Virus record (IMG/VR): IMGVR_UViG_3300020577_005824
DNA length: 20,000 nucleotides
Reading direction: 5' to 3' (one strand)
Origin: an uncultured virus (IMG/VR IMGVR_UViG_3300020577_005824)
Taxonomy: Duplodnaviria > Heunggongvirae > Uroviricota > Caudoviricetes
Shown here: in pieces, positions 2,198 through 20,000 of the stretch
How positions within the stretch are numbered: position 1 is the stretch's first letter
Layout of the letters: each line of letters starts with the position of its first letter
The notes under the pieces: model-generated
Told to the model about the DNA's origin: nothing
Seen by the model: only the letters and a program-made list of their open reading frames with translations
Databases searched by the model: none
Made by a program: the position numbers and the translations under genes

Positions 2198-2212
2198 TAT
2201 AAAAATACAAAA

Positions 2213-3022: not shown

Positions 3023-3033
3023 TATATATAAAT

Positions 3034-3429: not shown

Positions 3430-3446
3430 TTTTTTAATTTACAAAA

Positions 3447-3830: not shown

Positions 3831-3860
3831 TTATTATATTTACAACAAAATTCATACAAT

Positions 3861-4391: not shown

Positions 4392-4425
4392 AATATAAGA
4401 TTATAATAATTTAAAAATTATAAAA

Positions 4426-4662: not shown

Positions 4663-4673
4663 AAGTTAATTAC

Positions 4674-4715
4674 AACAAAAAAAACCTTAACTAATAAGTT
4701 AAGGTTTTTTTTGTT
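4674..4715. terminator. Bidirectional intrinsic terminator
   Basis: Perfect 19-bp inverted repeat AACAAAAAAAACCTTAACT-aata-AGTTAAGGTTTTTTTTGTT with A8/T8 tracts, lying between convergent gene blocks. Confidence 0.85.
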
Positions 4716-5154: not shown

Positions 5155-5166
5155 AATATAAATATT

Positions 5167-5196
5167 AAAAAAGGCCAGTAAATTAAAATACTGGCC
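5167..5196 (-). terminator. Intrinsic terminator after the SSB-like gene
   Basis: GGCCAGTA-N8-TACTGGCC stem (5173-5196) followed on the minus strand by T6 (A6 at 5167-5172). Confidence 0.65.
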
Positions 5197-5204
5197 AATA
5201 TAGA

Positions 5205-5909
5205 TTAGAATGGTAGATCTTCATCTTGTTGAGCAAAAGGATTAGTTCCAGGAGATACACCTGGCATCTGACCACCGCCTTGCTGATTATTTACAAATGT
5301 ATTAGATTGCTGTTGTTGGTTAAAAACCGGTGCCGCTTGATTGTTTTGAGCGGATTGACCTTGACTGAAAGGATTAGCAGAATTTTGTTGATTAACTGCA
5401 GGTGCTGAGTTATTTTGAACTGGAGCATTACCAAAAGGATTTTGGGCTTGTTGCTGAACTTTAGGTTGTGCTACCTGAGTATTTTGTTGTTGAAACGGTT
5501 GAGATTGAGCAGAAACGCCCATTAGCTGATGTAACGGAATAGCACCCTCGTCGATAAATGTAGCCCAATCATTATAAGTATTTAGCTTACCTTGAACTTT
5601 ACCTTTGAACTGAATCATAATAAAGTTTCCTAATGAAATTGCTCTCAATTTCTCTTCTAATACTTTCCCTCCAGATACATCGATGCATTGCCCTAAAGAC
5701 CCATCTTGATTTACCATTTGGATTTCAGCTACATAGAATGTAGTCCCTGGATTCTTGCCATGTAATTCAGTGAATTTCTTAAAATACCCTTCTATCTGTG
5801 TAGGATATTGAGTATTTCCGATGTTTTTTTGAGGCTCCCATCTTTGGTTATCACTACCTGATTGACCTACTTCTGCGTAATTACGCCCTGTTTTCTGATT
5901 CTGATTCAT
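5205..5909 (-). CDS. Single-stranded DNA-binding protein-like
   Basis: Beta-rich N-terminal domain, Gln/Asn/Pro-rich linker with NPF repeats and an acidic C-terminal tail DEDLPF, as in SSB tips; sits in the replication module. Confidence 0.7.
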   Translation of the reverse strand: MNQNQKTGRNYAEVGQSGSDNQRWEPQKNIGNTQYPTQIEGYFKKFTELHGKNPGTTFYVAEIQMVNQDGSLGQCIDVSGGKVLEEKLRAISLGNFIMIQFKGKVQGKLNTYNDWATFIDEGAIPLHQLMGVSAQSQPFQQQNTQVAQPKVQQQAQNPFGNAPVQNNSAPAVNQQNSANPFSQGQSAQNNQAAPVFNQQQQSNTFVNNQQGGGQMPGVSPGTNPFAQQDEDLPF

Positions 5910-6165
5910 GTTGTTTTGGTTTTAAATTGTTTTTTTGATTTTCATTTAATTTACGACGAGGCTTCACTCTAATCTCAGCTCTTATGCCGTATATAAGCTC
6001 TGAGAGGCATTTTAATTCTTTTTCCTTAAAAGATGCAATATCTCTTTTTATCCTGCGTGACGCTTGATCATTATCCATAATCTCTAGCTTTGCACAATCT
6101 GCAGACATAGCTACTAATGCATTTACCGCATTATTCAGTACCGGTAATATCTCTCTTTTTATCAT
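5881..6165 (-). CDS. Hypothetical protein
   Basis: 94-aa helical ORF overlapping both neighbours. Confidence 0.55.
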   Translation of the reverse strand: MIKREILPVLNNAVNALVAMSADCAKLEIMDNDQASRRIKRDIASFKEKELKCLSELIYGIRAEIRVKPRRKLNENQKNNLKPKQHESESENRA

Positions 6166-6481
6166 ACTCTAATTTAAACTTTTTCTTATTTTCATACTTC
6201 TCTCCCAACTCATCACTAACTGTAGCTCCAACGTACTTAGCATCGATTACAAACTGAAACCTTACGCTTATACCTAATATTGACAACACCTCCTCAAATT
6301 GACTTTCAGTTATATCTGCTTTAGAAACACCTTGAACATTCATGTAACTAGACATAAAATATTGGTACTCTAACCCAACCTCAGAACAAATGTATGACAA
6401 TGGTATATTAAATTCCTTTGACCTACTTACAATAAGCCTCTTTAATTCAGCGCTACCAAGATATACATCCATTAGTGTCAT
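6131..6481 (-). CDS. Hypothetical protein, possible HTH DNA-binding protein
   Basis: LKRLIVSRSKEFNIPLSYICSEVGLEYQYF resembles an XRE-like HTH; 4-bp overlap with the upstream gene. Confidence 0.45.
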   Translation of the reverse strand: MTLMDVYLGSAELKRLIVSRSKEFNIPLSYICSEVGLEYQYFMSSYMNVQGVSKADITESQFEEVLSILGISVRFQFVIDAKYVGATVSDELGEKYENKKKFKLEYDKKRDITGTE

Positions 6482-6777
6482 TCTATCTTTCTAACAACTA
6501 CTTTAGTACCTATTCTATCCCTGAAGCTTGAAAAAGACTCCTCGATAATCATAGAGTGCGACTTATTCAAAGCATCTTCTTCCTCATTAGGCTTTTCATC
6601 AGGCATCAATATAAGTATCGTCATTTCACCCTTAATAGCCCTGTCTTTTGGTCCTTTGTGCCATCCGCGAAATGTTTTTATGATAGAAATATCAACACAC
6701 TCTCGCTCTGTAGCTACGTTTTCCTTCGTAACCTTGTTGCTAAGAACTCTGTCAACTTCAATAAATTCTTTTTGCAT
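6478..6777 (-). CDS. Hypothetical protein
   Basis: The track start (TTG at 6795) falls inside the predicted -7 promoter box, so ATG at 6777 (MQKEFIE) is preferred. Confidence 0.55.
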   Translation of the reverse strand: MQKEFIEVDRVLSNKVTKENVATERECVDISIIKTFRGWHKGPKDRAIKGEMTILILMPDEKPNEEEDALNKSHSMIIEESFSSFRDRIGTKVVVRKIE

Positions 6778-6792
6778 AAACGCTTGTTTTGA

Positions 6793-6824
6793 CAAACATA
6801 AGAAGTTTATTTGATATTATCAAA
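6793..6824 (-). promoter_or_regulatory. Bacteroidota-type housekeeping promoter (-33 TTTG / -7 TAnnTTTG)
   Basis: The minus strand reads TTTG-ATAATATCAAATAAACTTCT(20 nt)-TATGTTTG, an exact consensus match with correct spacing in an intergenic gap. Confidence 0.7.
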
Positions 6825-6840
6825 GAAAAAGTTAAAAAAA

Positions 6841-7314
6841 TTATGATAAATATTCGTCGATTATCTTAATAGCCTCTTCAGCTCCTACGGCAAAAACTGC
6901 CTTATACCCCTGCTCTTCCAATCTTTTCAATATGGCATATTGTTCCTGAACATGCTCATTGGAGGATAAACTACCATCTTTAAGGTATGGTGATTTACCA
7001 TCTCGTTTTAGCTCTATGAAAAGACCGTTATACCCTAATTTATCAATGTATTTATCCATCATTGGCTTAGCGATAAATAAGTCAGGTAATCCGCGAGAAG
7101 ATCGCAATCTTGCATTCATACCTCCAATATGCTTTCCTAGGTTCATTCCTGACGCAAGGTCACATTGAAATATAACATCTGGGTAGTTATCTTTTAAATG
7201 CTTGCATACCGATACCTGAATGTTAGCCTCTTTTATCTTAGTATTTTTCTTGAACGTCTTTTTAAACTCCTCTGGAGTAAAAAGATTAGCTTCTGATGTT
7301 GATTTTTTAGCCAC
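6841..7314 (-). CDS. VRR-NUC-type PD-(D/E)XK nuclease (putative Holliday junction resolvase)
   Basis: E..IQ...V, RGLPDLFIA, GLFIELK, Q...L..L...GY.A motifs. The start is probably GTG at 7314, overlapping the helicase stop, rather than 7380. Confidence 0.8.
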   Translation of the reverse strand: MAKKSTSEANLFTPEEFKKTFKKNTKIKEANIQVSVCKHLKDNYPDVIFQCDLASGMNLGKHIGGMNARLRSSRGLPDLFIAKPMMDKYIDKLGYNGLFIELKRDGKSPYLKDGSLSSNEHVQEQYAILKRLEEQGYKAVFAVGAEEAIKIIDEYLS

Positions 7315-9343
7315 GGTTATTATTTCTTTTGTTAGGGTTAAACTCATAATTCTGAGGTGGAGTTTCTTCATAATGAACATGCAGATTATTGTCTATATTC
7401 AATATGTAAGACTCGACGCCTGTCTCAGTTCTCTTGTCGGTAAGACGAAGGTAAAGTTTACCTTTCATAAACTCTACTTCATCAGGATTATCAATAGACT
7501 GACTATTCGGATCTATAATCTTTGATGTAGAGAAATACCCATCTGCATTTGCTGTTGTTTTAATACCGCCACGAACCTTCTTGCCTGTATCCCTCAATAC
7601 AGCATTTCCAGCATCTCCCGACATGTGTAGTAATCCAAATACTACGCAGTTTGTTTGCTTCGCTATCTCCTTACATACTCCTGAGTTGTAAATGGTAGCC
7701 TGAATTTCATCTTTACCAGCAGCGTCCATCTGAGTAATACCATCAACAACAATAAGCTTTATTTCCTTACCTGTAGTAGCGTATATATGTTGTATTGTAG
7801 CATACACATTCTTTTGATTGAATCCGTTGCCGTTAACAACGAATATGTTTCGTTTAGTGTAAACCTCTATCTTCTCAATAAACTCAGCAACATTACCCTC
7901 GTTTAGCTCTTTTCTGTAAAGCATGTCTCTCATGTTAACACCTAAAGTCATTTGGGCTAATCTTCCATATAGCTGAAATCTACTCATCTCTCCATTCAGA
8001 TACAATGTAGGTATGCCGTCCATGGCATTTCTAAAAGCAGTATACTGAACAAGTATGGATTTATATGTTCCACCTAATCCTATCCACTCATAAAAAGAAC
8101 CAGGAAGAGCACCTCCAAACATATCTCTGTCTACAGGAGGAATATATGTTCTTATCATTCCCTTTGTCATATCCATCTTCACAAGCTCCTTGACCATATC
8201 CTCTGCAGTTTCATAAGATAACGAATCCTTAGCTGCGGCCGAAGCGATATTGTTTTGAAGTGTAGATACTGCATAATTCATCATATCTACAAGAGAAGCC
8301 CTTTTGTAATCTATGTAACCCATCTTGTCATAAAAGTTACCTATCTTACCTACAACATCCATAATCTCGCCTATCTGCAGCTTATATGTGTAAAGCATGG
8401 CTGTAATACGCATAATATCATTAGCAGCTACATCAGTAGTGTAATTCGCTATATATGGAGGAGCTACGAATGATGAGTTATTGTCTATATCTCTAACCTT
8501 CACGGAGCCGTGTTCGTGCTGATTATGGAAGAATGCTGAACGTACAGACTGATGCCACTTGCTGTCTGGAGTAGTATATCGGCTGTCAATCATTCTGATA
8601 ACATCGTCAGGACTAGCTCCACATCTATTCATAGCACATGCAAGTGCGTGTATGTAAACATTCTTTTGTCCATCTACATATTCTTTATTTCTTTCTACCC
8701 ACTTTACGCAAGTATCGAATATAGCATCTAGGTTATTAGTAGCCTCATGCTCTCCGGCAGAAGTATGTACGTGGCCTGTAACTACAGTGTTATACTTTTC
8801 TACATTCACCTCAAATGGTGCGGCATCCTTTATAATACATTCAGGGTCATAAGAAACATAACAAAGACGACACACATCTTTTCCAGAAGGGTCTACATTT
8901 ACAAAGTAGTTATTTTCTACATATTCCTGAAGATGTAAGAATGACGCTCTGTGGTTATTCGGGTCGGTAACATTAGTTTGAAAAACTATCTTTATACCAT
9001 TGTTGCTAGGAGATATAAATACACAGCATACATGAGGGTCTTTGGATAATTGCTGCTTCAAAAGCTTTATCTTTTCAGTATCTATTTTATCAACATCTAT
9101 AACAGTAAGCGAAGAATACGTTTCTACAGAATTAATTGACCTAGTACCTTCTTTGAAAGTTCCTGACCATGTAACAGCAGGAAGGAGTTTTTTCTTTTCC
9201 TTATATTCCTTCTCATCTGTTATGTTACGAAGCAAGGCTATTTGGTTAGCCCACTCTCCTGACAATATACCTACAGCTACATCGTGAGCATTGACGTTCT
9301 GAATATCCTTCGAAAAGGTATTTGGATAAAATGATATTAGCAT
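7307..9343 (-). CDS. Primase-helicase: BT4734/VirE-N-like primase domain, PriCT-like region and DnaB/RecA-type helicase
   Basis: N-terminal KKKLLPAVTWSGTF, IDVD, FISPSNNGIK and DPSGKDVCRLCYVSYDP; central GQKNVYIHALACAMNRCG; C-terminal Walker A GLGGTYKS, YLNGEM, Walker B IVVDG and LLHM. The start is likely ATG 9343 (MLISFY). Confidence 0.8.
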   Translation of the reverse strand: MLISFYPNTFSKDIQNVNAHDVAVGILSGEWANQIALLRNITDEKEYKEKKKLLPAVTWSGTFKEGTRSINSVETYSSLTVIDVDKIDTEKIKLLKQQLSKDPHVCCVFISPSNNGIKIVFQTNVTDPNNHRASFLHLQEYVENNYFVNVDPSGKDVCRLCYVSYDPECIIKDAAPFEVNVEKYNTVVTGHVHTSAGEHEATNNLDAIFDTCVKWVERNKEYVDGQKNVYIHALACAMNRCGASPDDVIRMIDSRYTTPDSKWHQSVRSAFFHNQHEHGSVKVRDIDNNSSFVAPPYIANYTTDVAANDIMRITAMLYTYKLQIGEIMDVVGKIGNFYDKMGYIDYKRASLVDMMNYAVSTLQNNIASAAAKDSLSYETAEDMVKELVKMDMTKGMIRTYIPPVDRDMFGGALPGSFYEWIGLGGTYKSILVQYTAFRNAMDGIPTLYLNGEMSRFQLYGRLAQMTLGVNMRDMLYRKELNEGNVAEFIEKIEVYTKRNIFVVNGNGFNQKNVYATIQHIYATTGKEIKLIVVDGITQMDAAGKDEIQATIYNSGVCKEIAKQTNCVVFGLLHMSGDAGNAVLRDTGKKVRGGIKTTANADGYFSTSKIIDPNSQSIDNPDEVEFMKGKLYLRLTDKRTETGVESYILNIDNNLHVHYEETPPQNYEFNPNKRNNNRG

Positions 9344-9353
9344 AAATTGAAAA

Positions 9354-10499
9354 TTAAGGTTTAGCGTACTCTGCAATTAAGAAACAGAAGATGTTCTCCT
9401 CCTCAGTATTTACCTTCGGAATAATAAAAGACGGTCTGTTTTTCTCAGATGAGTAATGTAACACGAACTCAATAGACTCCATGCTATTCAATACTTTTAT
9501 CAAGTGATTATGAGCAAAGTATTTAGTAATAGGTGTCTTTGTAATATTCTCCATAGTGATGATCTCCTCACCGTCTTTCTTAGTCAATGTATCTGAAGAT
9601 GTAAGTATGAGATTATTATCTTCACCGCAAGAAAAAAATACTTGCTTGACATCACTATCAGAAGCATAAAGCTGTAGTCTCTTGACTGCAGAATTACATT
9701 CTATAGCGTTTATTATGTACTTGTTTTCTGGACGCTTAGAGAACAATGATTCGCTATTTGGAAACTTTACATTTGCCAATGTCGTTACCACCTCAAACAT
9801 CTCCGAAGAATCACTCCCTGTATAGAAAATAGCATGTTTACCGTTATGAGAAACGCCTATCTCTCCTTTGTCTCCAAGTAATTTCAATAAACAACTAGCA
9901 GCGTCAGTTGTAATATTTATCTTTTCCCATTTATTAATTGAAATAGGAGGAACTGCAGCACGGCACATTAACTCATTAGTTAATCCAGTGAATACCATTT
10001 TATTGTCTATCTCAGCAATGTTAATGGCTACCATATTGGCATTCTTGTTATCGTCATCTACAAAGTTATAAGCATATTTCAATCCTAACTTTAAATAGAA
10101 TTGTCCTATGTTTATAGAATTTGTCATTTCCTCAATGGAAATTCGCGGAAAAGACTCAGGGAAACAATCCATGCCAATGTTATACTTGGACTTACCGCAT
10201 TTAAGCTCTATAGAATCCTCTTTCTTCTGAGTAATTGTAATTTGATTGTCACTGAATAACTTCACTGTTTTAAGTAATAGTTGAGCAGCTACACAAATAG
10301 CGAATGATGCATTTGCCTTTACTTGGCAGTCTGTTCTTAGCTGAGTGCCACTGTTGCACGCTATGATATCCATGCTATCGGAAGAGATGTTTAGCATGAA
10401 ATTATCCATTGCTGGGATAATTGATTTTGCTGGCACAAACTTAATGGCCTTTTCTAATTTGAAGAGTAAGAGTTCTCTATCTATAACTACCTTATTCAT
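9354..10499 (-). CDS. dnaN: DNA polymerase III beta sliding clamp-like protein
   Basis: 381 aa. N-terminus IDRELLLFKLEKAIKFVPAKSIIPAMDNFML, then ESFP, KFPNSESLF and a C-terminal RPSFII..FCFLI, matching the DnaN layout. Confidence 0.8.
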   Translation of the reverse strand: MNKVVIDRELLLFKLEKAIKFVPAKSIIPAMDNFMLNISSDSMDIIACNSGTQLRTDCQVKANASFAICVAAQLLLKTVKLFSDNQITITQKKEDSIELKCGKSKYNIGMDCFPESFPRISIEEMTNSINIGQFYLKLGLKYAYNFVDDDNKNANMVAINIAEIDNKMVFTGLTNELMCRAAVPPISINKWEKINITTDAASCLLKLLGDKGEIGVSHNGKHAIFYTGSDSSEMFEVVTTLANVKFPNSESLFSKRPENKYIINAIECNSAVKRLQLYASDSDVKQVFFSCGEDNNLILTSSDTLTKKDGEEIITMENITKTPITKYFAHNHLIKVLNSMESIEFVLHYSSEKNRPSFIIPKVNTEEENIFCFLIAEYAKP

Positions 10500-10511
10500 A
10501 ATCTGATTTCT

Positions 10512-10913
10512 TTATTCCTTTTTTAAAAATGTTAATATAGGGTCTTTTTGGCAAATATAAAGAGTCTTTTCATTTATTCCTTTCGTGATAACATAATCAT
10601 AATAAGTTTTCCATGATTCGTAATCTTCATCTTTATCAACATAGACCTCAAAGTGTGTTTTGTTAGTAGCTTCTTTTGTTGCTGGCATCCAAGGCATTCT
10701 TGGCCACATCCACTTTCCCTTCGTTAATCTACTATTTACAGATATAGCTCCTCTGAATATATGATTTACACCTATTGGTTCCATAAAGTAAAGAATCCTA
10801 CCTAAAACAATGGCGTTTGATCTATTCTTTTCGGTTACTAATGTAAAGTCATTGATAGCGCCTTTCTTTAGTTGCCATGGCGCCACACCGTAATTACTAG
10901 ATTGCTTTGCCAT
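10512..10913 (-). CDS. Hypothetical protein
   Basis: 133-aa ORF tightly packed in the operon. Confidence 0.6.
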   Translation of the reverse strand: MAKQSSNYGVAPWQLKKGAINDFTLVTEKNRSNAIVLGRILYFMEPIGVNHIFRGAISVNSRLTKGKWMWPRMPWMPATKEATNKTHFEVYVDKDEDYESWKTYYDYVITKGINEKTLYICQKDPILTFLKKE

Positions 10914-10914
10914 G

Positions 10915-12918
10915 TTATATAAAATCTGGAGGTGTAGGAAGGATTGATTCAGGAATTACTGGCGCTTCATTAATTTGATAAGCTATACCATCATTACGAA
11001 ACTTATTCTTTTCAATATGATCCCAAGATTTAATTACAACTTCACTGTCTACAACTCCTTTATTTTCTGACGGAATGAATTGAGATTTGTTGTCTTCTAT
11101 TCCTTTGATGAGTTGCTGCATTTGATCGAATGTTGGCTCGATAGTTTGCTTGGAATCGAAAATAATGTTTTCGTTACAACTATCCTTATTTTCTTCAAAC
11201 ATTGGTCCCGAATCCACCACTTTATCTTGTTGTGCCGGTACACTAACTTCTCCAGGAAGTGATATATTATTGTCAATAGGTAACTCATTTTTATTTAATA
11301 ATTGCTTGATTAATATTTCCTCTATTTTCTCCATCTCAAGAACCTCCTTTCCATCCATAAGCTGATTTATATCTTTCTCCTTATGAACCAAAAGGTTATA
11401 TAAATTCTCGTCAATGCTATCTTTTGCGAATGTATAATGAATGCGTAGATGCTGATTTTTTTTCTCAGGGTGCTTACATCTAAATTGCGCCTGACGAAGC
11501 TCTCTAGGAGTAAATGGAAAGTTTATGTGGAACACATCACTCGCTATAGATAAATCTAACGCTTCGCCTGCAGCAAGATAATTCCCTAAGAACACTTGCT
11601 TGTCAGGATTATCCCAAAACTCACGCTTAAATCTATCTCTGTCATAAGAGTTAGTGGTTCCATCTACCTTTAAGCATCTATCTCCAAAATACTCTTCAAG
11701 TATCTTAAACGGCTCCTTGTAAGAACCAAATACAACAACCTTTCCTTTTTCCTCGATAATATCTTCGATAGCCTGAATCATTCCCTTCATCTTAGCCTTA
11801 CAAGTGATGATATTTATTGAGTGAACGTGACCACGTAAAGCAGCCATATTCTTTTCCTTGGCCATCTCCTCGATAATAGAATTATACTCATCACGGTAAT
11901 CGTCAAAATCAAAAGTGTACCTTGATACTACATCCTCCGGCATATCGAAGCAATCATCCATTTTCTTCACAAGCATAAAATTTAGCATCTTGTTTTTAAG
12001 ATCCTGAATGTTCTTGGCACCAGTAACTTTCTCGCCACCACGAGAGGCGGTCTTGATAGTGTACTCATCAGTAAATTTCTTATAAGATTCACCTAGTGGG
12101 TGATTGGCTATTTTGAAGTAATTGAATAAATCGTTAAAACGATTAGGGATTGGAGTTCCTGATAATAATGTAATCTTAGCATTAGGATATGCTCCAGTAA
12201 TCTCATTTATGACCTTTGAGCGATCAGAAAATCTATTTTTGATACGATGACACTCATCGATGATAAAGTGTCCTATATCGTCAGATAAAAGATAGTCCTT
12301 AAACTTAGCCAGTATATCAAAATTTATGATAACGAACCTCTCCTGCAAAGCTTTGAATGATTTAGACTTCGAGCTATCAAGCATGGTGAAGTATAACTCA
12401 TTGAATCCCCAAGGAGCATTAGTTAAATCTCTAAACCATCCCCACTTCGCGATAGCAGGACATATAATCACTGTTCTTCTGATATTCAATATTCTAGTCA
12501 ATGAAGCGGAGGTTATAGATTTACCTAGTCTCATCTCAAATGCCAGGAAGTTAACACGATGCATTAATCCGAATCCTATACCCTCTTTCTGATGAGCGTA
12601 TAATTTAACAAAATACGGTAGCTTATCAGACATGAGTTGAATAGCTGAGTTTTCGTAAAAAGAATATGCTTCCTCTAAAGATTCATAGAATTTATTTCTT
12701 CTGTTTTCCTCGCTTATAGCCTCGGAAAAGTTCTTGAAAGATATTCTTATGAACTCAAACATCGCCTGCTTCCAAGTTCTAGGTATAGCTGCTGTTATAA
12801 CTCCTGAGTCAATATCTATGTCAAATCCATAACATTTAGCTAATACTATCTCTGTAGGATGCCATAACTTTTTCTCGAATCGTACGTGAGTGTTACTTAT
12901 TAGTTGAATGTCTTTCAT
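10915..12918 (-). CDS. SNF2-family (SF2) helicase
   Basis: LYAHQ, FEMRLGKS (motif I), IICP, IIDECH (II), LSGTP (III), GEALDL and Q..FR (VI). Confidence 0.88.
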   Translation of the reverse strand: MKDIQLISNTHVRFEKKLWHPTEIVLAKCYGFDIDIDSGVITAAIPRTWKQAMFEFIRISFKNFSEAISEENRRNKFYESLEEAYSFYENSAIQLMSDKLPYFVKLYAHQKEGIGFGLMHRVNFLAFEMRLGKSITSASLTRILNIRRTVIICPAIAKWGWFRDLTNAPWGFNELYFTMLDSSKSKSFKALQERFVIINFDILAKFKDYLLSDDIGHFIIDECHRIKNRFSDRSKVINEITGAYPNAKITLLSGTPIPNRFNDLFNYFKIANHPLGESYKKFTDEYTIKTASRGGEKVTGAKNIQDLKNKMLNFMLVKKMDDCFDMPEDVVSRYTFDFDDYRDEYNSIIEEMAKEKNMAALRGHVHSINIITCKAKMKGMIQAIEDIIEEKGKVVVFGSYKEPFKILEEYFGDRCLKVDGTTNSYDRDRFKREFWDNPDKQVFLGNYLAAGEALDLSIASDVFHINFPFTPRELRQAQFRCKHPEKKNQHLRIHYTFAKDSIDENLYNLLVHKEKDINQLMDGKEVLEMEKIEEILIKQLLNKNELPIDNNISLPGEVSVPAQQDKVVDSGPMFEENKDSCNENIIFDSKQTIEPTFDQMQQLIKGIEDNKSQFIPSENKGVVDSEVVIKSWDHIEKNKFRNDGIAYQINEAPVIPESILPTPPDFI

Positions 12919-13115
12919 ACTGATTTTTTTAATAAAATTGAATAAGTTGTAATGATTTCATTGACACCTTCTTTTTTATCGAATGCAATTACGCTGCTTG
13001 TGGTCATAGGGGACATTGGAATGTAATCTCTTTTGTTACACATTATATCCATAGTTTCCTCAAATGCGCGCTTACTTGTTTCTGACACGACTTTAAATTC
13101 AATTTGAATAGCCAT
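12915..13115 (-). CDS. Small hypothetical protein
   Basis: 66-aa ORF coupled to both neighbours by start/stop overlaps. Confidence 0.55.
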   Translation of the reverse strand: MAIQIEFKVVSETSKRAFEETMDIMCNKRDYIPMSPMTTSSVIAFDKKEGVNEIITTYSILLKKSV

Positions 13116-14554
13116 TACTTCAACACCTCCTCTGTAAACTTAACTTCTAATTCCTCACCTTCAAATTTCACAAATTCACAGACCGCCATATATCCACGAG
13201 CCTCAATCTTCTCAATTATAGCATGTAAGTGTTTCTTATCAAATACATTGGCATCGTGTAAGAATATAATTTTTAATGTTGGATTTAACGACATAGCTAC
13301 CTCTACGCCAACATCCCATAAACGAGCAGTGTTTATCTGTCCGTCTTCTAATGGCAATCCATCTAAGTAAAGATTATCATCATCAAAGCTTAATCCCTGA
13401 ATAGGAAGCTGAGAGTTTTTGATTATGTTATCTCTATCTGACTCAAGCTTGTTGATAGCGGCATTTTTAGCAACTACAGCCTCTCGGCACTTCAATAACT
13501 CTCGCTGATGCTCTGCAAGCTTAGAGATATTATTACACTTCTCATTGTGAGCAATAGCATCATTTATCTGATGACTTACCTCATCTACCGAAGGGCGATG
13601 ATTAGAAGCTAACCACTGCTCGCCTTTGACTATATTTTCCTTAGCCGTAGCAACCTCTTGTTTAATGGTAGCTACAGCATTATCGCACTCCGCTACTGCA
13701 TTAGCTTGAATACCTTGTTGACGCTTAATTTCCTCATTAAGACGAAATATCTCAGCAGAAGCAGCGCTTATCTTAACATTTGCAGATTCTCTGAAGGTAT
13801 TGATTCTCATCTCTGCATTATCTACGGTTGCCTTAAATCCAACAACCTTATTGTTAATATCATCCCATTGTGATTGCGCTGCTCCAATAGAAGACATTGC
13901 CGTTTGCATTGCCGTAATATCAATCTTCGTGGAATACTTATCCACCTCCTCAGCAGAAAGTCCATGGTTGGAAAGTATAGCATCTAACTCCTCGGCTCTA
14001 TCACTATTCTTTTTCTTTTCTGCCTTCTCAAGCTTTATGTTTGCAGATACCACATCTATCTCCTGACCTTTACCAGTAAGAGCCTTGATAGTTTTTAGCT
14101 TATTCTCAGGTTTATCATTCAGCCATTGAGTAACATCAAAAGATACGTTTCCTATGATTGACTTAATAAGCGTAGCTGGAGATTTTAATACCTCTCCAAG
14201 CTCATTCTTAATAACCAATCTACCCTTGCTATCTTTTTTTGTGAAGTATAAGTCCATGACGTACTCCTTATGAACTCCATCTATAGTTCCGGCTATAGTA
14301 TGTGAAATCATTGCTCTTTCCTCACCTGCTTTGATAGGTTTTGTAGGTAACATCTTTGTGTTCATTGGAGACATCATAGCTTGAATAAGCGCTGATTTAC
14401 CTGAGCCATTTGGACCTATAAACATTAACGAACGCCCTCCAATGTCTACTACTACATTTTGGAGGTTTTTGAAGTTTTCAACTACTAACTTTACGGATTT
14501 TAATCCTTCTGGTAATTGTGTTTCTGAATCTGTTGCTGTCGTCTTTTTTGCCAT
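13115..14554 (-). CDS. SMC/Rad50-like coiled-coil P-loop ATPase
   Basis: VENFK, Walker A GPNGSGKS, a long central coiled coil and a C-terminal Walker B-like IIFLHDANVFD. Confidence 0.8.
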   Translation of the reverse strand: MAKKTTATDSETQLPEGLKSVKLVVENFKNLQNVVVDIGGRSLMFIGPNGSGKSALIQAMMSPMNTKMLPTKPIKAGEERAMISHTIAGTIDGVHKEYVMDLYFTKKDSKGRLVIKNELGEVLKSPATLIKSIIGNVSFDVTQWLNDKPENKLKTIKALTGKGQEIDVVSANIKLEKAEKKKNSDRAEELDAILSNHGLSAEEVDKYSTKIDITAMQTAMSSIGAAQSQWDDINNKVVGFKATVDNAEMRINTFRESANVKISAASAEIFRLNEEIKRQQGIQANAVAECDNAVATIKQEVATAKENIVKGEQWLASNHRPSVDEVSHQINDAIAHNEKCNNISKLAEHQRELLKCREAVVAKNAAINKLESDRDNIIKNSQLPIQGLSFDDDNLYLDGLPLEDGQINTARLWDVGVEVAMSLNPTLKIIFLHDANVFDKKHLHAIIEKIEARGYMAVCEFVKFEGEELEVKFTEEVLK

Positions 14555-14568
14555 TGTTTTTAATTTTA

Positions 14569-15621
14569 TTAATCTTTATAACTTTCTAATTTAGCTAATT
14601 CCTTTTTCCTCTGCTCGCAAAACTGAGCTACCTGGCAGTATTCTTCACATTTCCTGCTTGATCCTGCTCTTACCTCAATCCACAATTTACCTTTACCACC
14701 AATAATCTCGTATGAGTTCTTATTCTCGATGATAAACGTATCCGCAGCAGTCTTGCTATCAAATACTCTAACTGCTCTTTTTACAGTTCCCTGCTTCACG
14801 GCAAATGAATCTGATGTAGCCCATCTCTCTTCACCGGTACACTCAGGAACATCTCCATTTTCAGCACGAGTGTGTAAATCCATTCTGTGAAGAATGTACT
14901 TAAATACATCTTCACGAGGATAAAGCTTTACGTTGATTTCCTTAACTTGACGATCTGGATAATCCTTATTTCTTACAAATCCGTATCTATTCCAATCTCT
15001 GAATAACGCTACGATCTTAATTGCTGTAACGTTAAAGCCATGCTGCTCTTTTAACATGTAAGCATAGATATTAGTCTGGCGCTCCCACTTAACATTGGCT
15101 CCTGGAGCAGTGTATTGAAATGTAGAACAGAATTTATAATCATACAAGATACCAGTTTCCTTATCATACAAGTCAAAAGTACCTGAAAGCACCTTATCAC
15201 CAACCTGCAATTGCATGGTTATCTCATATACATATCTATCCCCAATTTCAGGGAAGAAAATAGGGATAAGACTAAATATCCAATTTGCTCCATTGCGGAG
15301 CTTATCTGCAGCCTCCTTATTAGATGTCGACATCTTATCAGCTTCCTGCATGATAGTCTCTGCAGTAGTAATGAATGCGCGCTTGCGCTCCGACTTAATA
15401 TTTGCTCGCTCAAGGATATGGTGTAATGCCGTACCCATAAGAGCATAAAGTCCATCAACCACATCTTCCTCATAGGTATGCTTTTTCTTCAATAAGCGAA
15501 TCTGCGGAGCGTCTATCAGCGTGGTAACGGATATGTCACCGGCAAGCTTATGTGTATCGTACTTTATAGCATCGTATAAGGTAGTTGGTAGACCAAACTT
15601 GTTAGTAAGTATTCTTGGCAT
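14569..15621 (-). CDS. PD-(D/E)XK exonuclease (Cas4/AddB-like recombination nuclease)
   Basis: SVTTL, GTALH, E...LSGTFD, LYDYK, QTNIY and a C-terminal Cys cluster CEEYCQVAQFC. Confidence 0.8.
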   Translation of the reverse strand: MPRILTNKFGLPTTLYDAIKYDTHKLAGDISVTTLIDAPQIRLLKKKHTYEEDVVDGLYALMGTALHHILERANIKSERKRAFITTAETIMQEADKMSTSNKEAADKLRNGANWIFSLIPIFFPEIGDRYVYEITMQLQVGDKVLSGTFDLYDKETGILYDYKFCSTFQYTAPGANVKWERQTNIYAYMLKEQHGFNVTAIKIVALFRDWNRYGFVRNKDYPDRQVKEINVKLYPREDVFKYILHRMDLHTRAENGDVPECTGEERWATSDSFAVKQGTVKRAVRVFDSKTAADTFIIENKNSYEIIGGKGKLWIEVRAGSSRKCEEYCQVAQFCEQRKKELAKLESYKD

Positions 15622-15745
15622 TTTTAGAGTAGTTTAGTTTTATACCTTTGTCAGAAGCATCGTCATACGATTTTTCTACGATTTTAGTTTTTAATGTAGA
15701 TCTCCACGCTTTTAGAGACTCTATTTTAAGGGTTTGTTTTGCCAT
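15602..15745 (-). CDS. Small hypothetical protein (47 aa), not in the ORF track
   Basis: MAKQTLKIESLKAWRSTLKTKIVEKSYDDASDKGIKLNYSKNAKNTY* fills the gap and overlaps both neighbours. Confidence 0.45.
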   Translation of the reverse strand: MAKQTLKIESLKAWRSTLKTKIVEKSYDDASDKGIKLNYSKNAKNTY

Positions 15746-15950
15746 GGTTTTTAAGTATTTTAATTTGATCTTTTGTTAATACATCTTTATATTCTTCGAT
15801 TGTCTCTTCTAACGAAATTCCATGTATTCTGACTCCGAAAAGCTTCTCTTTTTGCTCATCGGTTAGAGGAGGAATCAATAAAGTTTTGAAATCAGGAAAC
15901 TGTCCAGATTCTTCGAAAAATTGCCTATGCTGATATATATCGTTGCTCAT
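15726..15950 (-). CDS. Hypothetical protein
   Basis: 74-aa ORF following an AT-rich intergenic gap. Confidence 0.55.
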   Translation of the reverse strand: MSNDIYQHRQFFEESGQFPDFKTLLIPPLTDEQKEKLFGVRIHGISLEETIEEYKDVLTKDQIKILKNHGKTNP

Positions 15951-16013
15951 AATTTCCGTAAAGTTAAACTTTATTTTTTCGATAAAAAAATATTTTTGTC
16001 GAATTTTTAATAT

Positions 16014-16202
16014 TTAGAACTTATCTAAATAAGGCATGTTAAATTTGATCCTGTAGATAGATTCTCTGTTGTAATCCCACACTTCATAAACCACATTATT
16101 AGAGTCTATGACTATGTTGTTTGAAAGCTTTGTGATGGGAAATCTCGGAGGAGCATCTACCTGTTTCGGGAAGACGAACTTCGGAGGTTCTGGTGTTTTC
16201 AT
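16014..16202 (-). CDS. Hypothetical protein
   Basis: 62-aa ORF with a TAATG overlap with the upstream gene. Confidence 0.5.
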   Translation of the reverse strand: MKTPEPPKFVFPKQVDAPPRFPITKLSNNIVIDSNNVVYEVWDYNRESIYRIKFNMPYLDKF

Positions 16203-16666
16203 TATTTCACTTGTTTATAGTTTCTACCTGTAAGTTGTTTTGCTTTCCACTCCTCAGAGTCAGGAACCTCGGTCTCTAACTCCTGCTCGATGTAGAACAT
16301 GCAGTCTTGAATGAATTTCAATAACCTGGCTTTTGACATTGACGATAGGTCGATGAGGTAAACTTGAATTTGGCCTGTTTTCTGATTATACATTTCTTCT
16401 TTGGCTAGTTCTGCTTGTAGCATATATCTAGCCTTTACCTTATCTACCGCAGCCCATCCTTGGCGAGTATATCCTCGCATCGCAGCATCCATTAGAGGCC
16501 CATGAAGGAAAGCGTACATCCTCATCTTTTCAGGAGTCTTTGCTGAATGTTTTATGGATAAATCCACTTCAACTCCATCGTTTTCTACACAGTATCTTTC
16601 TACGTCAAAATTATTGAAGAATAAAAATCTTCCTTTATTGCACACGGCTTTAAAAATAGCTTGCAT
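16202..16666 (-). CDS. NinB/Orf-like recombination accessory protein (tentative)
   Basis: The C-terminal DLSSMSKARLLKFIQDCMFYIEQELETEVPD resembles the NinB-family ending; size and context fit. Confidence 0.45.
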   Translation of the reverse strand: MQAIFKAVCNKGRFLFFNNFDVERYCVENDGVEVDLSIKHSAKTPEKMRMYAFLHGPLMDAAMRGYTRQGWAAVDKVKARYMLQAELAKEEMYNQKTGQIQVYLIDLSSMSKARLLKFIQDCMFYIEQELETEVPDSEEWKAKQLTGRNYKQVK

Positions 16667-16793
16667 GATTACTGAGTTAAATACATTAATGTTATTATTA
16701 TGTCTAAAGTAACTGAATAAATGAATAATGGCGGAAAATCATCATCTTTATTAAAAACGAATACCCATAAAAGGTAAAACAAAAGCGTTATCA

Positions 16794-17192
16794 TTACTTC
16801 CTCCCTCTTTTTTTGTTACCTAATATGGCTCCTATAGGGCCGTGATTTTCTTCGTGAATGTATGGTTCAAGATTATGTTTATGATAATTTTGAAGAACGA
16901 ATGGCTTAGGATCCTCTTTTAAAATTTCACTGAGAGGACGAGGCTTGTTTTCTCGCGGGACATCTTCGAGAGTCTTTGCTATTTCTGGTCCATACACCTT
17001 AGTTCCTTCCGTTGATACGCCTATCATTTTACTTATACGTTCAGTTACGTCTCTTTCATTCATTTCTAATCCGTGACCTAGAAATATAATTGCTTTTTGA
17101 CTTTGAAGAAGTTTTTCTATGGCAATCCTTGTGGCGGTACCCATTCCTTCAGCTCCAATAACTATAATTTTATCCTTTTTCATTACCTTCAA
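16794..17192 (-). CDS. Hypothetical protein
   Basis: 132-aa ORF overlapping the RNase H gene; the start may be a slightly later ATG. Confidence 0.5.
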   Translation of the reverse strand: MKVMKKDKIIVIGAEGMGTATRIAIEKLLQSQKAIIFLGHGLEMNERDVTERISKMIGVSTEGTKVYGPEIAKTLEDVPRENKPRPLSEILKEDPKPFVLQNYHKHNLEPYIHEENHGPIGAILGNKKRGRK

Positions 17193-17664
17193 GTTTATTA
17201 ATTAATATACCCATTTCTATCTTAGCTGCAGCATCACACATGGCATTGGCACGAGACCTGCTTGCCATATTTGTATCGTCATGTCCCTTAACGTGCACTA
17301 AGAATATCTTCTTTCCGCTAAATAACTTCTTTATCTGCATCCTAGAGCCATACATCATCTTACTTAAATTCTTTAGCCTATACTTTCTAATGGCTACTTT
17401 ATCATGCTTCCAAATATGGATAGCGTTCATAGAGTCAGTGTTGATATGAACATCCTTGCATTTACTGAAGATGTCTTCCTGCTGCGACAGGAATACTAGG
17501 GCATTGATGATGCACTTAATTTCAGCCTCAGAAGGGCTAGAGCATTTCTTTCTAAGCTCACCAGACTTTGACATCCTTCCGGCATTTGAACTTATGTAGA
17601 AGGCGTATGTGCCACGATTATGTTTGGCACTATATGAAGCGTCGGTGGTTATGGTGACGTTCAT
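17170..17664 (-). CDS. rnhA: Ribonuclease HI-like protein
   Basis: Catalytic motifs ITTDAS, EAE, NTDS, HVKGH and N..CD..AK. Confidence 0.85.
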   Translation of the reverse strand: MNVTITTDASYSAKHNRGTYAFYISSNAGRMSKSGELRKKCSSPSEAEIKCIINALVFLSQQEDIFSKCKDVHINTDSMNAIHIWKHDKVAIRKYRLKNLSKMMYGSRMQIKKLFSGKKIFLVHVKGHDDTNMASRSRANAMCDAAAKIEMGILINKLEGNEKG

Positions 17665-18494
17665 CGCATTGATATATTTGATATTGGTGATGGAACTCTA
17701 CTTATAAGATTGTGACTTATATGAGTGTAAATTTGAGTTGTTTTTAGACTGCCATGACCAAGAAGCTTTTGGATAATTGAAATATCGGTTCCGTTTTCAA
17801 GTAAATGTGTAGCGTAGCAATGTCGAATAAGGTGAGGATAAACGTTTTTATTTTTTATTCCTGCATTCTCGGCAAGCTGATTAACAACCTCTCCGATGCT
17901 TCTACTTGAATATTGCAATGATGATTGTCCGTTCAATACATATTCCTTTGACTTATATTCTTTCCAATATCTTATTAAAAGTTCTTCTATGGAATTATCT
18001 AATCCAACCTGTCGATCTTTATTACCCTTGGCTTGTATTACGTTAATAATTCTTCTGTCTCTATCTATATGATTCCACTTTAGATTTATTAACTCAGACA
18101 CTCTAAGTCCACAAGAGTACAGTAGCGCTAGTATTACGCGATGTTTTAAGTTTTCGCAAGAATCAAACATTCTTTGTATTTCTTGAATAGAGAGAATTAT
18201 TGGCAATTTGTTGTTTTTCTTAGCATAGGGAATGTATTTAAACTTATTCTTTTGTCCTATACATATATCATAAAACTTTTTTATTGCAGAATGATAGTTT
18301 CGCTGAGTATTCACCTCTTTAAATGTACCTAAAAACTCCTTAATATCACTTTCGTTAATATTCTTAGGGTGGTCTTTTTTAGACTGAGAAAAGAAAAATT
18401 TAATACAACCAGAATAACTTTCAATGGTATTCTTGCTGTAATTTCTACGCTTCATTTCCTGCTCGAAATTGATTGCGTGTTCAGAGATATTCAT
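17661..18494 (-). CDS. Tyrosine recombinase, integron-integrase-like but without the IntI insertion
   Basis: SAM-like N-terminus RRNYSKNTIESY, then LYSCGLRVSE (R), KGNKDR (K), HLIRH, LGH and TTQIYTH (Y). Adjacent to an attI-like site and cassette array. Confidence 0.92.
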   Translation of the reverse strand: MNISEHAINFEQEMKRRNYSKNTIESYSGCIKFFFSQSKKDHPKNINESDIKEFLGTFKEVNTQRNYHSAIKKFYDICIGQKNKFKYIPYAKKNNKLPIILSIQEIQRMFDSCENLKHRVILALLYSCGLRVSELINLKWNHIDRDRRIINVIQAKGNKDRQVGLDNSIEELLIRYWKEYKSKEYVLNGQSSLQYSSRSIGEVVNQLAENAGIKNKNVYPHLIRHCYATHLLENGTDISIIQKLLGHGSLKTTQIYTHISHNLISRVPSPISNISMR

Positions 18495-18529
18495 TTTGAT
18501 TATTGATTTTATTAATGTTTTAAACTGAA

Positions 18530-18558
18530 ACTTACATATTTTATGTTAGTGGCAATGC
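18530..18558 (+). other. attI-like recombination site (predicted crossover G18545|T18546)
   Basis: GTTAGTGGCAATGC lies 51 bp from the integrase start and has no long attC hairpin to its left. There is a short imperfect dyad ACTTACATA-ttt-TATGTTAGT. Confidence 0.7.
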
Positions 18559-19416
18559 TACCCGAACACACGAGCAACTGCCAACTCATAATATTTTACC
18601 TCTTTTTCAATACCTATAAATTTTCGGTTCAACTCTTTTGCTCCTAAACAAGTTGTTCCTACTCCCATTGTGTTATCAAGCACATAATCGTTTTCGTCTG
18701 AATATGTAGCAATTATTTCTTTCATCAAACTTAAAGGTTTTTGAGTTGGGTGTATAGTCTTACCTTCACTTCCAAACTCCCAAATGGTTGTAGGGTAGTT
18801 AGTGTATTCTTGTTTTGTAACCAATCCAACAGGTCTGCTTTTTCTACTTCCATAGTTATCTGTATCAGTTGAGTTTTTATTGTACCTTTCAACTTTTACA
18901 AGTCCTTGTGGATTGTATGTCATTCTATTCTTACAACCATTTGCGGAAGCACCTTTGCTAAAAATCAAAATATTTTCGTGTTTCCTCATTGGTTTATTTT
19001 TAGCCTCCAAATGTCCGTTTGGGCGTGATTTTACCCATATAATTTCATACTTAAACAATTTTAAGTTTGATGAAATAAGTTGAGTTGTAAATGGTTGCGT
19101 TGCAGTTAAAATAATTGCTCCATTGTCGGTAATTATTCTCTCATACTCAACCCACAACTTGTTTAGGTCTAATACACTATCCCATTTATTTGCAGTCGTT
19201 CCATAAGGCAAATCAGCCAAAATAAGTTGAACCGATTTATCAGGAATAAGAGGTAAAATATCCATACAATCAGCATTGAACAAAGCACTGCCACTAACAC
19301 TGCATTGCTGCAATGGCGGCAGACTGCCAAACTTCAACTTATGTGCTTCTATTATCTTTTGTGCTATATTCATCTTTTCGTTCTTTTAATCCGCCACTGA
19401 CAGCAATGCTTTTACG
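18546..19416 (+). mobile_element. Gene cassette 1 (871 bp; DNA methyltransferase)
   Basis: Starts (G)TTAGTGGCAATGC. Its attC begins GCACTGCCACTAAC (19285-19298), the reverse complement at 13/14 positions. Confidence 0.8.
18558..19373 (-). CDS. DNA methyltransferase, N4-C/N6-A beta class
   Basis: ADC...IPDKSVQLILADLPYG (motif IV), HENILIF, HPTQKP and VLDNTMGVGTT...GIE (motif I); motif IV precedes motif I. Confidence 0.92.
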   Translation of the reverse strand: MNIAQKIIEAHKLKFGSLPPLQQCSVSGSALFNADCMDILPLIPDKSVQLILADLPYGTTANKWDSVLDLNKLWVEYERIITDNGAIILTATQPFTTQLISSNLKLFKYEIIWVKSRPNGHLEAKNKPMRKHENILIFSKGASANGCKNRMTYNPQGLVKVERYNKNSTDTDNYGSRKSRPVGLVTKQEYTNYPTTIWEFGSEGKTIHPTQKPLSLMKEIIATYSDENDYVLDNTMGVGTTCLGAKELNRKFIGIEKEVKYYELAVARVFG

Positions 19417-19422
19417 TTAGCC
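19292..19422 (+). repeat. attC-like site 1 (131 bp)
   Basis: CACTAAC-act-GCATTGCTG.CAATGGCGG-loop-CCGCCACTG(A)CAGCAATGC-ttttac-GTTAGCC: an 18-bp stem with one mismatch and one bulged base. Confidence 0.85.
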
Positions 19423-19793
19423 GCAAGCCTAAGCGACATCGTAACTAATAGTTAGGTTTGACATTGCCTCAATTGTAAAAAGCAACTGACCTGCCACATC
19501 ATAACCATTGTAAACTGTTATCGTAAGGTCGTTATGATACCCTTTGCCGATAGTCTTTTCTTCTTCTTTAATTTCGTGTATCTTATCGCCAAATGCAGCA
19601 TATTGGTACTTGTCGTTTACGGCAAAGTAAGTTGAGCCTTCGCCAGTTCCTTTTTCAATTGATTTTATTCGTTTCATTTTTATTTGTGTTGTGAGAAAGG
19701 CCAGCGGCTAACAGCGGTTTTGCAATAGCCGCCCGACACATCTCGGTTAATAATTAAATTCTTCTTTGGCGGCCATCGCAAAGCCGCAAAACG
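19417..19793 (+). mobile_element. Gene cassette 2 (377 bp; 82-aa ORF)
   Basis: Starts (G)TTAGCCGCAAGCCT. Its attC begins AGGCCAGCGGCTAAC (19698-19712), the reverse complement at 13/15 positions. Confidence 0.8.
19429..19677 (-). CDS. Hypothetical cassette protein (82 aa)
   Basis: ORF with an A-rich leader that fills the cassette; its stop abuts the cassette boundary. Confidence 0.7.
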   Translation of the reverse strand: MKRIKSIEKGTGEGSTYFAVNDKYQYAAFGDKIHEIKEEEKTIGKGYHNDLTITVYNGYDVAGQLLFTIEAMSNLTISYDVA

Positions 19794-19799
19794 TTACAG
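19706..19799 (+). repeat. attC-like site 2 (94 bp)
   Basis: GGCTAAC-a-GCGGTTTTGCAATAGCCGCC-loop-GGCGGCCATCGCAAAGCCGC-aaaac-GTTACAG: a 20-bp stem with 3 transition mismatches. Confidence 0.85.
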
Positions 19800-19844
19800 G
19801 TAATAGGGGTGAAGTGCTTCGATTGATATTCTCGTTTGAAATTT

Positions 19845-20000
19845 TTAATTAAACCATTTGAGTTCTGTCGTTCCATTGAAGCCTTTTTGCCACACATACC
19901 AAGCATACGCAACAGCACTTCCACCGCCAGCAATCATTTTTTCAAATTCAGCGTTCTTTGCACAAAGCAGCCGAGAACTTGAAACATAAACGGTCTTTGG
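19845..20000 (-). CDS. C-terminus of a probable phage-type DNA adenine methyltransferase (cassette 3; 5' part outside the window)
   Basis: Translated by hand: PKTVYVSSSRLLCAKNAEFEKMIAGGGSAVAYAWYVWQKGFNGTTELKWFN*. The YAW(F/Y)VW.KG ending is typical of small NPP(Y/F)-type phage methylases, but the catalytic motifs are not visible. Confidence 0.6.
   Translation of the reverse strand, partial: PKTVYVSSSRLLCAKNAEFEKMIAGGGSAVAYAWYVWQKGFNGTTELKWFN

Follow-up and report, generated by a model that had tools for sequence, protein, structure and literature searches.

What are the genes at the end of this viral DNA, and how did they come to stand there? The stretch analysed (hereafter the window) consists of 20,000 nucleotides from an uncultured virus of the Caudoviricetes (IMG/VR record IMGVR_UViG_3300020577_005824). 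Its last 1.5 kb carries genes separated by imperfect hairpins, next to the gene of a tyrosine recombinase. A sequence-only reading had proposed that the left arm of each hairpin site is complementary to the start of its own cassette rather than to the adjacent right arm, as a footprint of past recombination between G and TT (G↓TT, the arrow marking the crossover). The observation proved genuine and had been interpreted correctly; in principle, this signature is the one that textbooks give for integron cassettes. The region is probably where an integron-like cassette array begins in the genome of a phage. On our reading, which we consider likely, the phage seems to exchange accessory genes by means of an integron-like system that a small Xer-type recombinase operates.

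Each cassette carries its own pair of arms

On the + strand, a cassette begins at the TT of a GTT and ends with the G of the following GTT. A start arm of 15 nucleotides (nt) comes first, and the gene follows on the - strand; next comes a left arm, also 15 nt long and closing in AAC, and then a hairpin core with imperfect pairing (Table 1). In cassette 1, GTTAGTGGCAATGC (18545-18558) matches the reverse complement of GCACTGCCACTAAC (19285-19298) at 13 of 14 positions. Including one flanking base on each side extends the match to 15/16 (18544-18559 and 19284-19299; 16 nt and 94% in a repeat finder). In cassette 2, GTTAGCCGCAAGCCT (19416-19430) pairs with AGGCCAGCGGCTAAC (19698-19712) at 13 of 15 positions. 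Outer pairing within the integrated hairpins is much shorter, as had been noted: the contiguous stretches are CTAAC/GTTAG (5 bp) in the first and TAAC/GTTA (4 bp) in the second. The right arm of the second hairpin, counted from G19793, matches the left arm of the same hairpin at 5/15, equivalent to 2 of the 12 positions after GTT.

Scored over these 12 positions, own arms match at 11/12 in cassette 1 and 10/12 in cassette 2. Among 4299 pairs of arms from related arrays that are neither own nor adjacent, four reach 10/12 and none reaches 11/12. This control is strict because the control arms share the arm consensus, and it excludes chance as the source of the window pairs. The boundaries proposed at 18545/18546, 19416/19417 and 19793/19794 hold, and the rule extends to relatives of the window.

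Recombination exchanges everything beyond G↓TT, and the right arm of an integrated hairpin therefore belongs to the next cassette. Since right arms are swapped in this way, the left arm of a cassette pairs with its own start. Stokes, Hall and Partridge reportedly defined classical cassette boundaries by the same relation, an inverse core that matches its own start.

The third junction, GTTACAGGTAATAGG, starts at 19793, and its partner arm lies past base 20000. If the pairing rule holds, the + strand sequence of the next left arm would be CCTAC[A/T]ACCTGTAAC, complementary to 19793-19807 and bearing the C that the family has opposite position 11. The first ~25 nt of cassette 3 are similar to a related locus (L029; loci are denoted by L numbers).

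The own-arm rule holds across related arrays

Relatives of the recombinase were examined at 25 viral and 80 metagenome loci, 105 in all, plus the window. Sites were located with a home-made finder that requires AAC and GTT to enclose a hairpin of -10 kcal/mol or lower with DNA parameters. Imperfect hairpins with basal AAC/GTT triplets, as expected of integron sites, were found at both window sites and at sites of nine related arrays.

In these nine arrays and the window, we compared the 12 bases after each GTT with the possible partner arms. Own pairs, consisting of the arm at GTT and the arm before the next AAC on the far side of the gene, match at a mean of 7.75/12, with 28 of 53 at 9 or more; the 53 are all consecutive pairs within 2.5 kb, including those with undetected sites between them. 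The mean is 4.65/12 for adjacent pairs from the same hairpin (n = 66, one at 9 or more) and 4.08/12 for all other pairs (n = 4299, 30 at 9 or more). The differences are significant in Mann-Whitney tests (own versus adjacent, p = 2.7e-8; own versus other, p = 5.9e-17).

A per-position profile was compiled from 28 pairs, comprising 27 with at least 9/12 matches and cassette 1 of the window. With the G of GTT as position 1, 93-100% of the pairs are complementary at positions 1-9 and 12-14, and 75% are at position 15. From position 16 on, complementarity is at background (18-46%), and the pairing covers exactly 15 positions. The earlier description of a 14-15-bp complementarity, about twice the classical 7-bp R box, is thus accurate, given a 7-base consensus in canonical sites (PMC5027507, available sections). 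Position 10 matches in 64% of the pairs. Position 11 never does: in 28/28, the arm after GTT has G there and the reverse-complemented other arm has A. This produces a T·G wobble on the gene-sense strand and an A·C mismatch on the other strand. Because position 11 is always mismatched and position 10 often, the mismatches in the window arms are features of the family and not signs of decay.

Folding of cassettes circularised in silico, which had been suggested as a check, supports the rule. The closed hairpins are more stable than the integrated ones in 36/36 cassettes with an own-arm score of at least 7, by a mean of -8.2 kcal/mol; closing gives no gain in sixteen low-scoring pairs (+1.2). In the window, closing with the own arm takes cassette 1 from -21.4 to -29.8 kcal/mol and cassette 2 from -19.6 to -32.6 kcal/mol. 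In 35 of the 36, folding is more stable on the gene-sense strand than on its complement (mean -5.0), and core 2 of the window gives -17.9 on the gene-sense strand versus -15.3 on the other. The spacers are asymmetric, with ~5 nt on one arm versus 0-3 nt on the other.

A docking site adjoins a Xer-like recombinase gene

The 277-amino-acid (aa) recombinase encoded next to the array scores above the cut-off of the NCBIfam XerA model (XerA_Arch NF040815, 225.7 bits versus 220). It scores below that of the integron-integrase model (TIGR02249, 183.4 bits versus 265), which it matches in two stretches. Its best solved relatives are the XerA-type proteins 4a8e and 5hxy. Residues 169-200 (32 aa) align where IntI4 (2a3v) has residues 173-247 (75 aa). 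With 32 residues opposite 75 in IntI4, the recombinase lacks the IntI-specific segment. The top metagenome and viral relatives are only 72% identical to it.

The start codon of the recombinase gene is 50 nt from the junction ACATATTTTATG↓TTA. The window, L026 and L001 have the junction in identical form and L027 has it in near-identical form, and immediately after GTTA these four sequences part ways. The first cassettes differ among the window, L026, L027, L028 and L001. In integrons, attI lies next to intI and new cassettes enter there; the conserved junction and the differing first cassettes agree with this arrangement. In L001, the closest viral relative, the docking site and the recombinase gene are separated by a 211-aa open reading frame (ORF; 9379-10014) that overlaps the start of the recombinase gene. 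The window has no counterpart of it.

Sites are concentrated on one side of the recombinase genes. Counting those with a 5' spacer of 4-8 nt and a 3' spacer of 0-3 nt on the recombinase strand, we found 78 in 303 kb upstream versus 6 in 375 kb downstream. Opposite-polarity sites do not rise above background (12 upstream, 18 downstream). Two or more sites are present upstream in 14 of the 50 loci with at least 2 kb of upstream sequence, and downstream in none of 63. Where recombinase identity is at least 45% and upstream sequence at least 2 kb, 8 of 11 loci have two or more upstream sites. In L033, L034, L041 and L057, two sites of opposite polarity are found downstream of the recombinase gene and not upstream, which may represent another platform layout.

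These data bear on a different origin of the array. The genes could be ordinary integron cassettes from bacteria, forming a cluster of attC sites lacking an integron integrase (CALIN) and moved by a host IntI, with the Xer-like gene acting as phage integrase or dimer resolvase. The sites have the AAC/GTT triplets and the hairpin shape in common with attC, integrase-less attC clusters occur in phages, and IntI1 recombined five of six phage sites tested (Qi et al., 2023; PMC9892861, available sections). However, the density of sites is ~16 times higher upstream than downstream of Xer-like genes, a conserved docking sequence lies directly at the 5' end of the recombinase gene, and the ORF list and Pfam show no IntI-type gene in the window. 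The geometry, a 15-bp R stem with spacers of 5 versus 1-3 nt, also differs from that of canonical attC. We consider a bacterial CALIN unlikely.

The published phage clusters include one from Polaribacter phage P12002L with methylase cargo (PMC9892861), which allowed a direct comparison. P12002L_attC1, known from a supplement primer (L106 29960-30095), is a true site of the present family and lies between methylase genes. It is the only site of the six that was not recombined by IntI1 (PMC9892861) and the only tested published site of the family, which argues further against movement by IntI. The published P12002L_attC2 corresponds to a ~70-nt sequence after the last AAC of two separate arrays (L106 29150-29260 and 37190-37320) and carries a AAAATCAAT motif like that of the window. 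By our own reading, it is probably a docking-site-like sequence at the array terminus rather than the hairpin of a cassette. The P12002L record has no annotated recombinase gene. The finder gave nothing in the short-looped P12002L sites, which were read by eye.

The crossover is favoured at G↓TT

The sequence-only reading explained the pairing of own start and own left arm by circles that recombine at G↓TT. The explanation is supported; complementarity alone does not fix the side of the crossover. The arms simply flank the ORF, and their complementarity fits equally well a crossover on the other side of the hairpin, at + strand AA↓C (19297/19298 and 19711/19712). A cassette would then be a gene followed by its hairpin, which is the canonical order, and a few contig ends fall at 19296-19299 and 19697-19702. 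Five lines of evidence favour + strand G↓TT instead: the docking site, a duplicated cassette, the limits of homology between loci, the methylase gene and contigs.

At the recombinase-side end of the array, GTTA is joined to conserved sequence that forms no hairpin. In L013, an empty cassette is present twice (2195-2358 and 2586-2749, 98% identical). Each copy consists of a core and the two abutting arms that follow it, the flanks of the copies differ, and the units are bounded by AA↓C on the gene-sense strand. In matches between sites of different loci, homology continues 18-30 nt past GTT on the gene side in 7/7, tying the core to the gene-side arm, and begins within 4 nt of AA↓C on the gene-sense strand in 5/7. 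The loop of the L013 duplicate (2206-2331 and 2597-2722) contains the tRNA T-arm-like words GGTTCGATTCC and GGGTTCGACTCCCAC; ARAGORN reported no tRNA gene in L013, so these words are not tRNA genes.

The methylase gene of cassette 1 provides the fourth line. Its start codon (19373) is in the loop of hairpin core 1 and the left arm encodes residues 26-30, so the recombination site overlaps the 5' end of the gene. PHROG 67 matches begin at residues 23-31, encoded by the core edge and the arm, and an N-terminal motif aligns with a distantly related L001 methylase from residue 29. The ORF of the L001 methylase (8073-8786) likewise starts inside its own core (8010-8125). Because the ORF starts inside the loop, a boundary on the other side would cut the gene, splitting off the start codon and the first ~25 residues in both the window and L001.

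Contigs from four sequencing runs form the fifth line. Run X23, which may represent the source sample, contains 0.87 of the sampled words, with the backbone at ~11x. In runs X1, X2 and X6, from three other studies, the backbone (15000-18506) is almost uncovered and cassette segments are present, although the lack of backbone cover proves nothing by itself. Contigs of all four runs match the window up to 19419-19421 and then diverge, and several continuations fit the arm consensus GTTRNNNGCAAK. In X6, contigs link 18545 to unrelated upstream sequence. A contig of X23 has 18545 attached to the end of a core-2-like site, a joint that in contigs looks the same for a circle and for another array order. 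Segments of the array are thus found in other contexts. Taken together, the five lines make a crossover at + strand AA↓C very unlikely.

Several further observations were made on the contigs. Contig joints with sides of 20-30 letters, such as 19434 to 19697, could come from other organisms and were set aside as evidence. The joint named is found in X23 and X1, where it brings the arms of cassette 2 together (19434-19697), omits 262 nt and has supporting sides of 20 letters; it may represent a cassette with these arms that is empty or has other contents. In X1, X2 and X6, the interior of cassette 3 (19810 onwards) is preceded by GTTATGCGTAATGCC in place of GTTACAGGTAATAGG. The two share the conserved middle of the arm and differ at variable positions. 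The summed contig depth of conserved cassette parts (18507-20000) is tens to hundreds of times that of the backbone (~11x in X23), and the signal also occurs in three other wastewater or sludge studies, essentially without backbone. Since this depth is far above that of the backbone, methylase ends, arms and cores must be common to many other genomes.

Gene exchange of this kind could also arise without a site-specific enzyme, by homologous recombination between conserved hairpin cores. Promoter stem-loops of T4-type phages are a model of such shuffling. Cores are indeed conserved between unrelated cassettes: window core 2 is 78% identical to L001 8808-8902 although the adjoining ORFs are unrelated, and the cores of the L087 array are near-identical. 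Window core 1 is 70% identical to an L027 site. However, homologous recombination leaves unexplained the covariation of two variable 15-nt arms at opposite ends of a unit, the break points at the GTT/AAC triplet and the clustering of sites on one side of the recombinase gene. We regard it as decidedly unlikely.

Gene polarity distinguishes one array from the others

Among 34 cassettes with an ORF of at least 40 aa, 28 have the gene on the recombinase strand, directed at the docking site. The other six all belong to L087 (array 1306-9553, recombinase 10001-10786), where the genes face away from that site as they do in classical integrons. The polarity of the L087 sites relative to the recombinase is unchanged despite the reversed genes. 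The cores in L087 are sites of 124 nt that are nearly identical to one another, a feature also of sedentary chromosomal integrons. The first cassette (8058-9553) carries a two-gene Thoeris system (ThsA, Macro 1.2e-59; ThsB, TIR 5.6e-26), and its arms follow the own-arm rule, including the G against A at position 11. The contrast in polarity comes from this one, apparently cellular array.

A uniform orientation within each array is difficult to reconcile with gene inversion. A tyrosine recombinase adjoining genes that are flanked by 14-15-bp inverted repeats would be expected of a DNA invertase, each gene being an invertible segment. Yet all 28 genes of the phage-type arrays are on the recombinase strand and all six in L087 on the other, and no strand-changing joints occur among the contig joints listed (18 further joints are outside the list). 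The repeats also vary from gene to gene and interlock with the hairpin cores, neither of which inversion needs. An invertase is extremely unlikely.

The arrays suggest a broader proposal, which we put forward tentatively and as a single joint claim. Phages of Bacteroidota-type hosts may run their own minimal integron, in which a Xer-like enzyme without the IntI domain acts on folded gene-sense hairpins and the strand is marked by the invariant G·T at position 11 of a 15-bp stem, not by extrahelical bases. One site grammar may serve two kinds of array, an apparently cellular defence store (L087) and a phage counter-defence store (methylases), and gene polarity relative to the site may separate the host from the phage cassette pool.

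The array resembles integrons and differs from them

The label attC given to the sites in the sequence-only reading is apt in that they are attC-like. It does not extend to membership in classical integrons, because the recombinase lacks the IntI insert and the ORFs are on the strand opposite to the canonical one. The likenesses are numerous. Hairpin sites with AAC/GTT, a crossover at the triplet after which the inner arm pairs with its own start, a docking site adjoining the recombinase gene, arrays that contain single-gene as well as empty cassettes, loops that vary and better folding of one strand are all common to both. On enzyme, site geometry and gene polarity, the phage platform nevertheless falls outside the integrons. 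Canonical attC has an R box of ~7 bp (RYYYAAC/GTTRRRY), a central spacer of 5-6 unpaired nt in each arm and extrahelical bases near L'' (PMC5027507). In contrast, the outer stem here is 15 bp with an invariant G·T at position 11, the spacers are ~5 nt versus 0-3 nt, and no canonical pattern of extrahelical bases is established in the phage sites. Integron genes read away from attI and have their expression driven by the Pc promoter, and the recombined bottom strand is antisense to them. Genes of the phage arrays occupy the strand opposite to the canonical one and are directed at the docking site and the recombinase gene.

The Xer recombinases include XerC/D and archaeal XerA and can also drive the integration of single-stranded phage DNA; by sequence, XerA is the closest protein family to the window recombinase. 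Xer/dif systems perform dimer resolution or integration of whole elements at a single dif site, in which two 11-bp arms flank a spacer of 6-8 bp. Unlike the present locus, they have no arrays of cassettes with private hairpin sites, and the window recombinase gene adjoins a cassette array and not a replication terminus. XerC/D are the only other tyrosine recombinases known to act on folded single-stranded substrates (PMC5027507).

Archaeal integrons (Ghaly et al., 2022; PMC9668308, available sections) are likewise arrays outside the classical bacterial groups, and the NCBIfam XerA model is named 'tyrosine recombinase/integron integrase'. Archaeal IntIs retain the IntI-specific additional domain (PMC9668308), whereas the window recombinase lacks it.

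The nearest published description is that of phage CALINs by Qi et al. (2023), which share with the window the methylase cargo and, in P12002L_attC1, a site of the same family. The authors treated the sites as integron attC usable by IntI1. The term 'Xer' is absent from the main text of that paper (PMC9892861), and its available sections do not describe a Xer-like recombinase, a docking site or the own-arm rule. Our literature searches turned up no account of attC-like cassette arrays that accompany a Xer-like recombinase in phages or Bacteroidota.

A possible mechanism and points against it

The adjacent 277-aa Xer-like recombinase is the candidate enzyme, and its substrate is presumably a folded single strand, for which the strand asymmetry of folding (35/36) and the wobble at position 11 (28/28) are indirect indications. 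In integrons, cleavage occurs between A and C of AAC on the folded bottom strand, followed by replicative resolution (PMC5027507). In the phage, the recombinase would cut the folded gene-sense strand (- strand of the window) at AA↓C in the 5' arm. The cut strand would be exchanged with the docking site, circles would be inserted at ACATATTTTATG↓TTA, and replication would then resolve and complete the insertion. A circle of cassette 1 would join the end of core 1 plus G to TTAGTGGC, and a circle of cassette 2 would join the end of core 2 plus G to TTAGCCGC. The gene-sense strand is tentatively favoured as the recombined strand.

A number of points weigh against this interpretation. The activity of the recombinase is only predicted, and it lacks the segment held necessary for integron integrases (Messier and Roy, 2001, as cited in PMC9668308). 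The extra unpaired bases are on the 5' arm of the favoured strand, whereas the extrahelical bases of canonical attC are near L'', on the other arm (PMC5027507). Only 14 of the 50 related loci with at least 2 kb of upstream sequence carry two or more sites; many recombinase relatives may have other jobs, or the finder may miss their sites. The finder is a heuristic tuned on the same sequences, and it missed hairpin 1 of the window in one orientation, which was added by hand. The pairing profile is partly circular at positions 4-15 except 11, because the pairs were picked at 9/12 or more. Logan contigs, from which the joints were taken, cannot prove circles or excision. Finally, several loose contig ends are found at the left-hand AAC (19296, 19299 and 19697-19702). 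We read these as conserved cores common to different cassettes, but they could also mark exchanges there.

Genomic context and coordinates

The remainder of the window has phage-like gene content. It encodes tail-fibre-like proteins, a primase-helicase with a BT4734-type N-terminal domain, a pol III beta clamp, a SNF2 helicase, an SMC-like ATPase, a PD-(D/E)XK exonuclease and an RNase H. From 5205 to 19677, every gene is on the - strand. A perfect 19-bp hairpin with A/T runs (4674-4715) sits between convergent gene blocks, the + strand genes ending at 4662 and the - strand genes at 4714, and is probably a bidirectional terminator. For the hairpins of the array, a reading as terminators or repetitive extragenic palindromes was considered and rejected.

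Megablast of the full window against cultured phages gave no match, and the 43-mer at the window end has no exact match in viral_contigs. No Rfam family matched 17000-20000 at E values up to 1. Scans of the window, L001, L013 and L026 found no tRNA gene.

Table 1. Positions of the recombinase gene, the docking region and the cassettes in the window
Feature	Position	Strand	Remarks
Xer-like tyrosine recombinase, 277 aa	17661-18494	-	Pfam Phage_integrase 2.9e-38; candidate cassette recombinase; directly precedes the array
Motif TATTGATTTTA of the docking (attI-like) region	18501-18511		Common to the window, L026, L027 and L028; near form in L001; read by eye
attI-like junction ACATATTTTATG↓TTA	18534-18548	+	Crossover between 18545 and 18546
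Cassette 1, from start arm through methylase gene (- strand), left arm and hairpin core to the final G	18546-19416	+	
Cassette 1 start arm, 15 nt from G of GTT	18545-18559	+	Pairs with 19284-19298
N6/N4 DNA methyltransferase ORF, 271 aa	18558-19373	-	Pfam N6_N4_Mtase 5.7e-31; PHROG 67 6.6e-68
Cassette 1 left (R''-type) arm, ends TAAC	19284-19298	+	Sole mismatch to start arm is position 11
Hairpin core 1, imperfect stem and long loop	19299-19415	+	Scan gave 19296-19418, -15.2 kcal/mol
Cassette 2, from start arm through 82-aa ORF (- strand), left arm and hairpin core 2 to the final G	19417-19793	+	
Cassette 2 start arm	19416-19430	+	Pairs with 19698-19712, 13/15
82-aa ORF of cassette 2	19429-19677	-	No Pfam, NCBIfam or PHROG match
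Cassette 2 left arm	19698-19712	+	Mismatches to start arm are positions 10 and 11, as in relatives
Hairpin core 2, 20-nt imperfect stem 19714-19733/19768-19787	19713-19792	+	85% complementary
Cassette 3, start arm 19793-19807, cut off by window end	19793-20000	+	ORF 19845-20000 (- strand) runs off the window

Implications

Integrons are defined and searched for by the IntI-specific domain. A Xer-like platform is therefore invisible to current tools, except as orphan CALINs. The own-arm rule offers a practical means of delimiting cassettes in phage genomes to the exact base.

If the enzyme is active, the IntI domain would not be needed for the recombination of cassettes with hairpin sites. The invariant G·T, which is A·C on the other strand, would then provide a simple rule for strand choice. 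Cargo such as an orphan DNA methylase suggests a store of counter-defence genes. Given an active recombinase, these phages would own a store of swappable accessory genes, represented here by the DNA methylase.

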